Part shown: positions 10,248-18,300 of the stretch, piece after piece
Numbering within the stretch: the stretch's first letter is position 1
Layout: each line of letters begins with the position of its first letter
Source of the DNA: an uncultured Chlamydiae bacterium
GTDB taxonomy: Bacteria > Chlamydiota > Chlamydiia > Chlamydiales > JAJFMB01
Direction of reading: 5' to 3'
Length of the DNA stretch: 64,000 nt
NCBI GenBank assembly: GCA_963696295.1
Contig: CAVOJR010000001.1
Coordinates: 2,688,001 to 2,752,000 of the forward strand
Notes under the pieces: generated by a model
Told to the model about the DNA's origin: nothing
What the model saw: the letters and a program-made list of their open reading frames with translations, nothing else
The model's database searches: none
Position numbers and translations under genes: made by a program

Positions 10248-10375
10248 GCGAGCCTCAAGTCGCGGTTAAATTGCCAAACCGCTTCGGTAATTGGAGTTGG
10301 GGATCAGGATCGAAGATATTTAGGATGTTTTGGGGCGAACTTTCTTGATTTACTGTGACTTTCACCTTCGATTCT
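10248..10375 (-). repeat. Copy 2 of the 3' end of the giant gene (cf. 15415-15525)
   Basis: gttaaattgccaaac.gcttcggtaattggagttggg...tttcttgatttactgtgactttcaccttcga is shared with 15415-15521. Confidence 0.92.
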
Positions 10376-10443
10376 TCTGAGCCCTTACTTTTTCAGGACC
10401 GACTAAATAGCGCAACACCCAAGTATTGAATGTGAGTCAACTT

Positions 10444-11244
10444 TTACGTCTTTCTGCGCTTATGGGTATTCGGAACTTTTAAAGCTGTTTTAATGTCTTT
10501 GTCTTCCAATTGATAAATACGTTGCTCAAGATGGTCATGATTCAGATAACTATCGATGATATGGGTATCAGATTTCAGAAGATAGGGTAGGCTTTTGTAC
10601 AGATATTTTATACAATCTTCATCTTTTGAATATTTAGGTACATTAGAAATATAGAGAATATCCAAACCTAATTGGTGCGTTTTTAAAAGGCTACCGATTT
10701 TTTTCATTGCTTCCCAATCAGATATATCTACCTGCTTGATAGAGAATCGTTGGGATATCAAAAGGGATCGAACGCGCTTATATTTTTCCTCAGTTGATAG
10801 AAAACTAACCCCATTATCAAATTCTTCTTTCAAACATTTCAATCTATAAAGAGCAGAATCATAAGCGGAAATTTCCTCATCATCAGAGGAAAAATAGGTT
10901 TCATGGTCTTTAATAATGTGATTTTTTAACGATTCAAGGGCATCCTTTGGGCGCTCAGTTTCTTTTATTATTTCTAGCGCTTTATTCCAAAAGATATTCA
11001 CTCTACTTCCTCTGTCTACAATAAGAAGATAATCCAAATTCTTTCTTACAGCGTACACATTGAGAGCAAAAAAGCAAGAGACGGCAATCATCAAATTCCC
11101 ATGGGGAGGAAGGCTTTCAATTTTTTGTAAATCATAATTCTCGTTTGTCGCTATACAGGGTTGATGTGCAAAATCATCAAAATCATCTAAAATTTCAAAA
11201 TCGGGTATAATTTGAGATAATTTTATGCTTTCTGATACGTTCAT
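10444..11244 (-). CDS. Hypothetical protein, 266 aa (possibly Rossmann/methyltransferase-like)
   Basis: Long ORF with AGGAG RBS; the fold is only a guess from the alpha/beta pattern and DILYISNV. Confidence 0.8.
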   Translation of the reverse strand: MNVSESIKLSQIIPDFEILDDFDDFAHQPCIATNENYDLQKIESLPPHGNLMIAVSCFFALNVYAVRKNLDYLLIVDRGSRVNIFWNKALEIIKETERPKDALESLKNHIIKDHETYFSSDDEEISAYDSALYRLKCLKEEFDNGVSFLSTEEKYKRVRSLLISQRFSIKQVDISDWEAMKKIGSLLKTHQLGLDILYISNVPKYSKDEDCIKYLYKSLPYLLKSDTHIIDSYLNHDHLEQRIYQLEDKDIKTALKVPNTHKRRKT

Positions 11245-11459
11245 TGTACTTCTCCTTTTTTAAGCAGATTTCCCCTGCCTACCTGCCAGCCCTCAGCGCC
11301 CCGCGAATCTCGGCTCTTTCCGGAAACCTAAAACAGATTATCCCGGGACAATAAAGCTCGTCTTTAGTTCTCGAAAAAAGCAACAAAAGGGTGCGCTCAA
11401 ACCGACTCAAAGGCTGTTTGTGCATAGAATTGTTAAAAGGTCACAAAAAGCTGGCTTAT

Positions 11460-14983: not shown

Positions 14984-15165
14984 TTTGCCTCAATGAATGA
15001 TCTGATTAAATTTAACAAATTAACATATTAAAATCAAATAAAAAAAAGACAAAGCTGTGCTTCCTGAAAGAGCTGTTGAAACAATCTTCAATGAGGCAAT
15101 TCTAAAATAATGCCTAAGGATTAAACGCTATTCCCACTACTCCACTTACACCATTTCTTCCACAA

Positions 15166-15335
15166 ATGAATCCCGATATCGCTTTTGCCATCCATTCCGT
15201 CGGCAAAGTTTTTACCGGCATGCTCGATCAACCCTTTCAACTCGACCAGAAAGTGGTTGACGCCCTGCCGAAGAAAGTTAGAGACCAGCTTTCGAATACC
15301 ACCTTGCGGCAAGTGATGCATCATCAAGGGCGTTA
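15166..15335 (+). pseudogene. Serine hydrolase / beta-lactamase family fragment
   Basis: FAIHSVGKVFTG (SxxK) and TTLRQVMHH (cf. ITLRQLLxH), with the intervening segment shortened and the rest missing. Confidence 0.6.
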
Positions 15336-15398
15336 CGTTAGAGGAGGCAGTCCCCTATTTTTAGGAATAAGATTTTCCTAGCGGTATTATTGCATCTC

Positions 15399-18300
15399 TT
15401 ACATCGAATAATTCGTTAAATTGCCAAACTGCTTCGGTAATTGGAGTTGGGGGGCAGGATCGGGGATTTTTAGGATGTTTTGGGACGAGCTTTCTTGATT
15501 TACTGTGACTTTCACCTTCGACTCTTTGGGAATGGGTTGCTGGAATAGGCGCTCATAGATGAGGTCGATGGTTCTGGTTTTGAAGGCGGTGCCATCTTGG
15601 ATGGTCGAGGTGGCTTTCAACGAATTCCATAAGGCGCGGAACTCCTCTGGCTTGGCCTGGATCCACTTTTCTAAAAGGGGGATGTTTTCGACAATGCCAT
15701 TGGTCAGATTCACTGAGGCCAGTACTTCTTGAAACCAAGGATCTGAGTTTATAACCAATTCCGAACTGTTTGGGTATAGTTCTAAAGAACCATTTTGATA
15801 GAGATTGCCATCGGGGGTGAAGAGGGCAGCGCGACAGCTAGGGTCTTTTCTCAACTGCTCCAGATAGTGATGGGCGTCGTCATTGGAAACCACGGCGGCG
15901 CATCTCTCGCCCTTTCTCTCATGGATCAAAATGGTGTAAGCAGGCTTTCTGATTGTTTGACCCGAAAAGAGGTTCAGGGCGTTTTTGCTGATGTATAAAT
16001 TTTTCGGAAAGAAGGGATTGTCGGAAAGAGGGGAATAATTAGAGGAGCTCTTAATGTCCAGATTTTTTAGGCAATCTTCGTTTTTGGCGTAATCGAGGAT
16101 CTCTTTGACTTGTCCGCTCTGAGTTTTTTGCTGCAGGAGGGATTGTTGTTTGACCTCTTCTACTGTGACGCGATAACCGACTTGGCGCGCGGTGGCGGTA
16201 AAATCGTAGAGAGGGCTTTCGGTTTTAGCCACCAGCTTGCTCGCCCGCTCAATGATTTGATTGGCCAGTTTCCATAAATCCTCTTGGCTTTCATCTAGGT
16301 ATTTATTGGTAAAAGCTGTCAGGAAAAGTTTCGTGTCGATCTCCTCAATGGGTATGCCGTAGGCCAGCACAGGGTCTCTTGGCATGGGAAATTCGAAGCA
16401 TTTTTTATATTTTTTATAATTAGCGGGGGTTTTCGCGATTTGCTCTTTGGCAAAGTGCCTCGCGAGAAACTGGATATCTTGCTGCGCTGTAGCCAGGATC
16501 GTGCTTTTGAGCTTCTTCGCTTCGTTTTCGGCAATCCATCCGAACAAACCTTTCACGTCTTCCGTTCCGCTCGATGCTTTAATGAGGGTGCGGATCTTTT
16601 CGGGTAATACCCATAAAGTGGTCTGCCCTTGCGGGTCGATCGGATTTTTTAAGAAGCTTCTCATGCGCATAACGGCTTGGGCGGCGGCGGAGAGGGTGGT
16701 GTTTTCCCCAATCGAGACAATCATCTTGGCGTGATCTGAGAGGGTGAGGTCGGTCCCGGTGGTTTCATCGGCGCCGTAAATTTTGAAGATCCGCTTGCCG
16801 GTGAGGCCCAATGTGGCCAATTCCCTTTTTAAATTGGTGGAGGGAAGCTGAGTCACTTTCTTATCTTTGTCCATGTAGTAGAGCCGCTTTTCTTTCCTCT
16901 CATCGAGATCGAAGTAGATCGCTCCGGCGTAGTCGAGGTCTTTGGCAAATTCGCAAAACGCCTCTGCCCAGGATTTTGGCTGGTGCCCTTTGCTCCAATA
17001 GCCGAGATCGATGATCCCTTCAATGGTTTTAAAGTTTTCCGGGTTTGCCTTATAGAGATCCTCAAAGAGTTTCTTTGGGGTAGATGGCTCAAAATAGTGG
17101 TGCTGCCCGTTATGCGGCAGGCAGCAGCGCTGAACCACATCGGCCAGAAATTCGAGATCGGGCCAATAGGAGTAGCTGTCGTCGAGACCAAAGGGGTAGA
17201 GTTCCTTTTCTCCCAGGGTGGCTGAAAATTGCACGGTGGCAAACGAGCCTGAAACCAAATCGGCACCTGTCGAGGTCATCTTTTCCGGGAAATGCAATAC
17301 TTGAGGGAGAGCGAGGTAGCGCAGATATCTCGTAATCACTTCCGGTTCCTTACCGATCCGCTCGATCATCATTTGCAAAAATTTAGGGTTGTAGAGATCG
17401 GATTCGGTGATCTCCTTTAATTCTATGGGGTCATTTTTCTGCCAGGCTCTAAATCTTAAGGCCAAATCGGTGTCTTCTTTCGCTTCATTCTGCAATTGGA
17501 GGAGGAGTTCTCTCATGGAGCTTTGATGCTCCACGCCTCTTTGCCAGGCGCCTTGACAGGTCAGTGTGGCGGCGATATCGGCGCTTTCAAACTTGGCAGA
17601 GGTCGGCGTTTTCTGATCGCGCGGCGCTTCCACCAGATCGGTTTCGAGGATAGAGGGGCCGTAATCCATCTCACCTACTTTGCTCAAATTGCTGGGCAAG
17701 ATTTTCAGGTAGAGCCCGCGCACGAAAGCAATCTCGGGCTGCAAGCTGGCCGGGAGACTTTTCGGATAGGAGAGTTTTTGATCTTTGACATAAGCCAAGG
17801 CAGCCGGATCGCTCACCTCCAGATCTTTCAGCAACTGCTCGGCAATAGCATCCAGGCACCTTTTTTTCTCCGCTTCCAATACCTGGGCTTGACCATTTTC
17901 CCTTAAGCGTAAAGAGGGTTGATCGACCATCAACTGATACGCGCGGATGAGGATCTCCCGCTGCTTCTCTTCAATCGGTTCGGGCGTGCCTTCAGCTTTG
18001 TTCGCCTGTAATAAACTATCGACGTTGCGGTGCGATTCATCGATCAGGAAGAGGCAATCCTTTTTTAATGTCTTTAAGAATTGATCCAGCTCCCAGAAGA
18101 GCAGTATCTGGTTTTCTTTTAGCGCTCTTTGCCAGGCGAGGTGAACCGCATGGTAGGTCTCGGGCTTAAAGATCAAGCAGGCTTTATTTTGCTTTAGAGA
18201 TTGATTGAGGTCGCGCATCTTTTGCACGTCAAACTGGTACTGCAGATCGATGTCTATATGAGCCGCGTTTTTTTGAAACACCTGGACCAGCACCTCTCTT

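Follow-up and report, generated by a model that had tools for sequence, protein, structure and literature searches.

Why should the end of one very long gene stand three times in the same orientation, with unrelated genes lodged between its copies? The question is raised by a 64,000-nucleotide stretch of an uncultured Chlamydiae bacterium (assembly GCA_963696295.1), which spans C1:2688001-2752000 of a 3.43-Mb genome in 2 contigs and is referred to here as the window; coordinates without the C1 prefix count from its first letter. A core protein of the window finds its best matches mainly among records of Chlamydiae, which makes the source an environmental chlamydia. The gene, hereafter the giant gene, belongs to the DUF3638 family, and a first-pass annotation had taken its 3' end for a possible att-like growth point at which gene cassettes are added. 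Our analysis indicates that the locus is probably a growth point that was used twice, one of about 19 such places, with no dedicated cassette system involved. Directly observed are the three copies in their order along the locus, the AT-rich and unique DNA that separates them, and 18 further genes with this architecture. The giant gene is read as two open reading frames (ORFs), and the copies of its end are designated A, B and C:

10248..10376, minus strand: orphan copy A, with 112 nt from the gene end and a 17-nt tail (sequence comparison)
12698..12753, minus strand: orphan copy B, with 38 nt from the gene end and a 17-nt tail common with A (sequence comparison)
15415..15526, minus strand: copy C, the live 3' end, with its own tail NYSM* (15399-15414) next to it (sequence comparison)
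15399..20858, minus strand: C-terminal ORF of the giant gene, 1819 aa, DUF3638 family, the anchor gene (Pfam, paralogue comparison)
20902..24444, minus strand: N-terminal ORF of the giant gene, 1180 aa, in a different frame (paralogue comparison)

Copy A and the live gene end C are identical at 103 of 112 nt without gaps (10265-10376 against 15415-15526), the two orphans at 55 of 56 nt (10248-10303 in A, 12698-12753 in B), and B and C at 37 of 38 nt (12715-12752 against 15415-15452). The proposal that the last ~110 bp of the gene recur twice is borne out for A, with its 112 nt, and not for B, which holds only 38 nt of gene end. Translated, both orphans read ...LPKRFGNLTAT* followed by (g/a)gctcgc and have the NLTAT* end in common, whereas the giant gene terminates in ...LPKQFGNLTNYSM, i.e. 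NLTNYSM, the shared homology halting 16 nt short of the end of its stop codon; the tail that the orphans were said to share, and the gene to lack, is thus real. The start points differ, A beginning 74 nt before B, and mismatches are unevenly distributed along A (8 in 74 nt, vs 1 in 56 nt for A/B; p = 0.08). A search of both strands of the genome found zero occurrences of the 16-mers of 10248-10376 elsewhere, which confines the core to this locus and rules it out as a dispersed repeat. An origin of the orphans as alternative toxin tails was likewise ruled out, since only AT* or NYSM* follows the shared segment. The repeat listing, for which no attC model was run, contained no inverted repeats of at least 25 nt at the copies. 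Together, the two giant-gene ORFs match a single intact paralogue of 3133 aa (C1:1636152-1645553). A truncated giant-gene end is unsupported: one paralogue is ~45 aa longer and the other stops at the same place. The gene is split at 20859-20901 into two frames, by either a real break or a read error, and the second giant paralogue (C1:2874805-2884148) is likewise split, at another position.

As had been claimed, the copies bracket blocks of genes. The two blocks measure 2.3 and 2.7 kb, have no sequence in common by self-comparison, and hold an Inc-like 385-aa gene together with a 266-aa gene (A-B) or the phosphatase gene (B-C). Their contents, and the elements next to the orphans, are as follows:

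15166..15381, plus strand: beta-lactamase-family (serine hydrolase) gene fragment, block B-C (PF00144, E 2e-5, under the curated cut-off)
12848..14983, minus strand: 711-aa metallophosphoesterase gene, block B-C cargo, with a 59% paralogue at C1:866584-868149 (Pfam, self-comparison)
12755..12785, plus strand: short stretch abutting B, like the 3' end of an IS3-like transposase gene at 25 of 26 nt (sequence comparison)
11460..12617, minus strand: 385-aa orphan protein, block A-B cargo (ORF, hydrophobicity)
10444..11244, minus strand: 266-aa DUF7790 gene, block A-B cargo, its own 3' end duplicated downstream (Pfam, self-comparison)
10379..10407, plus strand: terminal piece of a small dispersed repeat, truncated where it meets copy A (sequence comparison)
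8387..10135, plus strand: 582-aa leucine-rich-repeat (LRR) gene, convergent on copy A (Pfam)

The locus lies in an AT-rich stretch that starts directly past nuoN (GC 0.39-0.42 vs 0.47 for the genome). The 385-aa protein, for which a homologue search found none, was termed Inc-like for one 34-residue hydrophobic stretch (residues 87-120) followed by a charged, helical-looking region. Chlamydial Inc proteins, which are type III-secreted and located in the inclusion membrane, carry a bilobed hydrophobic domain of ~40-60 residues; here one stretch is seen. The transposase gene resembled by 12755-12785 has 5 identical copies in the genome, and the 31-nt stretch is likely a decayed insertion sequence remnant. 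The small repeat at 10379-10407 has 8 copies in this genome. In the relative G002 the same repeat forms tandem arrays with a period of ~87-88 nt (L004:1500-2230), and its end also trails the intact giant paralogue, where 24 of 32 nt match the stretch before A.

A Pfam scan of the 53 ORFs in the window detected no recombinase, and genome-wide PF00589 and PF00239 searches gave no match within the window, in agreement with the first-pass annotation. The nearest tyrosine recombinase lies ~47 kb to the left of the window, and no integron integrase was found beside the array. Serine recombinases, integrases and PD-(D/E)XK (Rpn-like) genes are present elsewhere in the genome, which also has a ComEC-family gene and RecA. 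The regions of all three non-Xer chromosomal integrases contain tRNA genes, and an 18-kb island at C1:2640419-2658274, 30-47 kb left of the window, contains a tyrosine integrase and a perfect 54-nt repeat of a tRNA-Tyr end. No restriction-modification (RM) family was detected by Pfam in the window cargo, many proteins of which have no Pfam match.

The same architecture recurs throughout the genome. A self-comparison screen for local direct duplicates (35-800 nt long, 0.5-15 kb apart, identity of 80% or more, distant copies excluded) returned 58, and in 36 of them exactly one copy lay in a gene of at least 150 aa; set aside were 6 duplicates whose copies both lay in genes and 16 that had no copy in a gene. 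Among the 36, a gene 3' end with an orphan downstream accounted for 20 (19 genes), against 2 with the orphan upstream, 1+1 at 5' ends and 12 mid-gene. Random re-placement yielded a mean of 1.6 and a maximum of 7 for the 3'-end/downstream class in 2000 runs, whereas 5'-end cases were not enriched (1 observed vs 2.2 expected). Gene calls were a longest-ORF set, in which stops are more exact than 5' ends. Two more 3'-end cases (the 266-aa gene and C1:3210565) were placed in the group with both copies in genes, and one of the 19 genes (C1:3199762) is a tandem array with no cargo. A second, more sensitive screen with 120-nt ends of 2394 genes identified 50 genes with a downstream 3' orphan, tandem arrays included, compared with 3 for upstream 3' orphans, 10 and 1 for 5' ends, and 4 and 3 for gene middles.

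The duplicates of the first screen vary in length (38-570 nt), and in 12 of the 19 genes their homology breaks off no more than 12 nt from the stop codon, against ~4 expected under an even spread over the class window. Near-identical sites are C1:3234070, 3040864 and 3210565. The DNA between copies has a median GC of 0.39 vs 0.47, the lowest of 2000 draws being 0.43, and in 18 of 19 cases no more than 21% of it is duplicated elsewhere. The cargo of 20 other sites comprises 68 proteins, most of which have no Pfam match. An ATPase, a HepT-like RNase, DUF4258 and a beta-lactamase-family protein were among those recognised, and the Pfam matches included neither an integrase nor an RM family. The host genes are unrelated to each other (lipoate ligase, xanthine dehydrogenase, UvrA-like, ABC permease, a Cys/Met enzyme and giants), and the duplicated ends of the 19 sites have no common motif, only chance words of up to 15 nt. 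In 14 of 20 cases a T directly precedes the orphan, a post hoc count that depends on where alignments end. Four more giant genes with downstream orphan ends were noticed (L020, L029, L030, L031): a second DUF3638 gene, two on a 135-kb contig and an ankyrin giant. When relatives were sampled (800 kb of the 2.05 Mb of G002, 800 kb of the ~4 Mb of G135) in 20-kb pieces, each gave 1 case per 800 kb, vs 2, 4, 5 and 2 in this genome (p = 0.08); the pattern occurs beyond this genome, for which no excess is proven.

These results bear on what the first-pass annotation had concluded. Its view of the gene end as a repeated insertion site holds in that the end most likely was duplicated as blocks were added and was used twice, and fails in that the site is not special, being one of many. 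An att-like site finds no support in orphan starts 74 nt apart, in the lack of a motif at 19 sites and in integrase islands that use tRNA ends. A cassette array is equally hard to uphold when 18 unrelated genes have the same architecture and other junctions in the locus fall mid-gene at microhomologies.

Taken together, the observations tilt us, by a modest measure, towards an origin of A and B as displaced older 3' ends, left by two successive insertions through host (RecA-type) recombination. A fragment from a related strain, comprising the gene end and whatever genes follow it in that strain, would have circularised or been joined illegitimately at its far end, and a single crossover in the gene end would leave the gene whole with the resident end displaced behind the cargo. 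The first event would have brought in the 385-aa gene and the DUF7790 gene, together with an end carrying the same AT* tail, and left A, the oldest copy; the second would have introduced the phosphatase block with the NYSM* tail, the last arrival, and left B. Two such rounds would give the order C - phosphatase block - B - 385-aa/DUF7790 block - A, and deletions would finally have shortened the orphans. Any gene end could serve, a special site or enzyme being unneeded. Because the incoming DNA would come from a relative with the shared gene but other following genes, homology would stop at the stop codon, even in cases with 99-100% identity.

Comparison with relatives provided one direct view of an unoccupied site. 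The genes PLD and dapB are direct neighbours in G001, G002 and G019, and in this genome 2.7 kb of other genes lie between them, with a decayed PLD end directly before dapB. The empty state was therefore seen in 3 of 5 genomes; gene order differs in G135, and the G008 contig ends there. At the lipoate ligase site, G135 has 280 nt vs 2.4 kb here. The kbl and 340-aa gene sites have no conserved neighbours in relatives, and the gene next to the ABC-operon site was not found in 149 other genomes searched. For the locus itself, a DNA comparison with 40 genomes, no congener among them, gave the small repeat in G002 as the sole match, and neither the giant C-terminus nor the phosphatase had a close match in scans of genomes and metagenomes. 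The nuoN neighbours in two relatives do not match this locus. The nuoN query (4177-5613) found the gene in G019 and G135 and not in the same-family genomes G001 (81% complete) and G002 (94%).

Several points weigh against successive insertion. Only one of four empty-site tests was clear, one was partial (lipoate ligase, G135) and two were uninformative; the clear one, PLD-dapB, comes from the more sensitive 120-nt screen and lies outside the 19 genes. No relative with this locus was found in 200 genomes searched at the protein level (best giant match 36-41% identity), so that its empty state is unseen, and the F-type conjugation marker TraN was not found in the genome. The 38 nt of B are short for a crossover, unless B has eroded. 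Clustering at stops, small repeats abutting both orphans and the T before 14 of 20 orphans are not fully explained. Finally, gene-versus-orphan differences genome-wide (67 synonymous, 88 non-synonymous) fit divergence after self-duplication as well as two strain alleles, and self-duplication does occur in this locus, where 6942-8256 is a colinear, internally deleted and eroded copy of 9830-14392. The features of this left part are:

6942..7068, plus strand: eroded copy of LRR gene positions 9830-9974 (self-comparison)
7212..7287, no strand assigned: palindromic dispersed repeat (self-comparison)
7331..8254, minus strand: 307-aa chimeric ORF, phosphatase middle plus DUF7790 3' end, an in-frame fusion with a 2-nt overlap (self-comparison)
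8238..8302, minus strand: 65-nt patch equal to C1:121002-120938, a piece of the metallo-beta-lactamase-fold gene C1:120830-121600, at 62 of 65 nt (self-comparison)

Within the copy, 7538-8256 corresponds to 13676-14392 (phosphatase middle, 97.8% identity) and 7322-7539 to 10435-10652 (DUF7790 3' end, 100%, 218/218). Like the LRR piece and the 65-nt patch, these two duplications went unmentioned in the first-pass annotation, and all four are at least as large as the smaller of the gene-end copies. The junctions of the left part lie mid-gene at 2-nt or imperfect microhomologies and not at the core, and the 65-nt patch joins the phosphatase copy via an imperfect microhomology. The chimera at 7331-8254 is possibly a new gene in the making.

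A possible, though distinctly less probable, account is tandem duplication with complementary deletion, in which a segment starting inside the giant gene would have been duplicated twice in the lineage and different genes then lost, with no incoming DNA at that step. It stays in play because such a process is visible in the left part of the locus, complete with microhomology junctions, and because the 67/88 counts do not separate it from successive insertion. The 55/56 identity of A and B, the many small indels in orphans (24 in 20 segments) and the short tandem arrays of gene ends common in the genome are also consistent with it, and transformation-triggered tandem duplication is described for S. 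pneumoniae in PMC3784515. However, blocks A-B and B-C have no common sequence, and the deletions would repeatedly have to begin at the stop codon (12 of 19 within 12 nt), even in 99-100% identical cases. Furthermore, the cargo is AT-rich, and at PLD-dapB it is absent from three relatives.

An unlikely account is break repair without prior homology, in which foreign DNA would be joined near a gene end and its far end would rejoin the sister chromosome further upstream and so duplicate the stretch in between, selection keeping only the events that leave genes whole. The microhomology junctions, the 65-nt templated patch and the variable length of the duplications are what this process might leave behind, but duplications that cross the intergenic region and reach the following gene should do no more harm and yet are rare, and the missing 5'-end enrichment likewise argues against it. 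We hold improbable a dedicated, unnamed gene-adding route of this chlamydial lineage that would aim at the stop-codon regions of any gene, for example by a nuclease or a repeat-linked enzyme acting in trans, would duplicate the gene tail each time and would pile up host-interaction genes in arrays with neither integrase nor att sequence. Site-specific integration, by an integrase in trans at an att site in the gene end or by a dedicated gene-end-targeting enzyme, is more doubtful still: the site was used twice, candidate enzymes are encoded elsewhere in the genome and small mobile repeats abut both orphans, but the staggered starts, the motif-free ends of 19 sites and the placing of the three non-Xer integrases near tRNA genes, one with its perfect 54-nt repeat, speak against it. 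An assembly artefact is scarcely credible, for although no contig crosses A, B or C among 24 of 77 pieces listed, the copies differ from one another, their flanks are unique, the genome is in 2 contigs, and contigs of low depth from two studies agree with the locus at 99-100% and run across the chimera junction at 7538, so that this part is no assembly error. The read evidence consists of contigs from three runs at a depth of 2-3, for which no joints are listed. One of the two bridging contig sets may stem from the source sample.

Other repeats were recorded in the window. Dispersed palindromic repeat families occur at 5627-5655, 7212-7287, 26045-26076 and 47665-47736 (11-16 matches for the three counted), and one such family marks the left edge of the AT-rich island that follows nuoN. 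A degenerate tandem array (55002-55367) overlaps the 3' end of a sodium:sulfate symporter gene, and short gene-end arrays of this kind are many in this genome. A 303-aa ORF contains a 33-nt tandem repeat with an 11-residue unit (29794-30222), and a 456-aa ORF a 69-nt triple repeat (27013-27226).

If successive insertion is correct, an intracellular bacterium usually thought genetically sheltered gained ~37 kb of accessory, mostly orphan genes at ~18 sites, by recombination of relatives' DNA at gene ends. The orphan tails would then log the order of arrival, the oldest lying furthest from the gene, and would permit motif-free detection of recent acquisitions in single genomes, candidate host-interaction genes included. 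The finding reveals no new enzyme system.

No description of such gene-end insertion scars in Chlamydiae was found in the open-access literature. Among known systems, integrase islands integrate in tRNA or gene 3' ends and need a neighbouring integrase and a fixed crossover core. As in those islands, a displaced gene-end copy bounds the insert here, and tandem use leaves several copies; unlike them, this locus has neither the neighbouring integrase nor the fixed core. It also differs from the orphan modules of polymorphic toxins (Rhs, contact-dependent inhibition, type VI secretion system (T6SS)), as no alternative toxin domain with an immunity gene follows the shared segment. In the T6SS effector-immunity arrays of Vibrio cholerae, repeated additions at one anchor likewise shift older parts backward, and for this sequential displacement PMC5361080 proposes homology-facilitated illegitimate recombination (HFIR), with no integrase known. 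There, however, the effector domain is replaced and immunity genes accumulate, whereas here the difference is confined to 2-4 terminal residues and the additions are entire, unrelated genes. The proposed single crossover has a counterpart in E. coli, where, according to PMC3240628, re-circularised linear DNA with one homologous end integrates in this way, with duplications in 56 of 60 clones (109-950 bp in the 14 sequenced). As here, one-sided homology places cargo between duplicated gene ends of variable length through host recombination only; unlike here, that system is laboratory conjugation at ~4e-9, and classical HFIR, as treated there, yields deletions and not duplications.

The locus represents a variant of insertion with long target duplication, one without RM cargo and with its repeats polarised towards stop codons. 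That phenomenon was reportedly first described in H. pylori by Nobusato et al. in 2000. In the later study (Furuta, Abe and Kobayashi 2010, PMC2853133), it comprises inserts of <20 kb between variable, genome-unique direct repeats of >30 bp, without integrase or transposase; some repeats overlap a gene 3' end, the cases were chosen for RM cargo, and a break-driven mechanism is proposed. The present locus resembles it in its unique repeats of 112, 56 and 38 nt and in its 2.3- and 2.7-kb blocks, which contain no mobile gene, only the 31-nt remnant resembling an insertion sequence. It departs from it in the lack of an RM gene in the cargo scanned and in repeats that are stop-codon-polarised, up to 18% diverged and stacked at one gene. 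Because repeat length, insert size and the lack of a mobile gene agree with that class and the RM cargo does not, we place the locus there as a variant.

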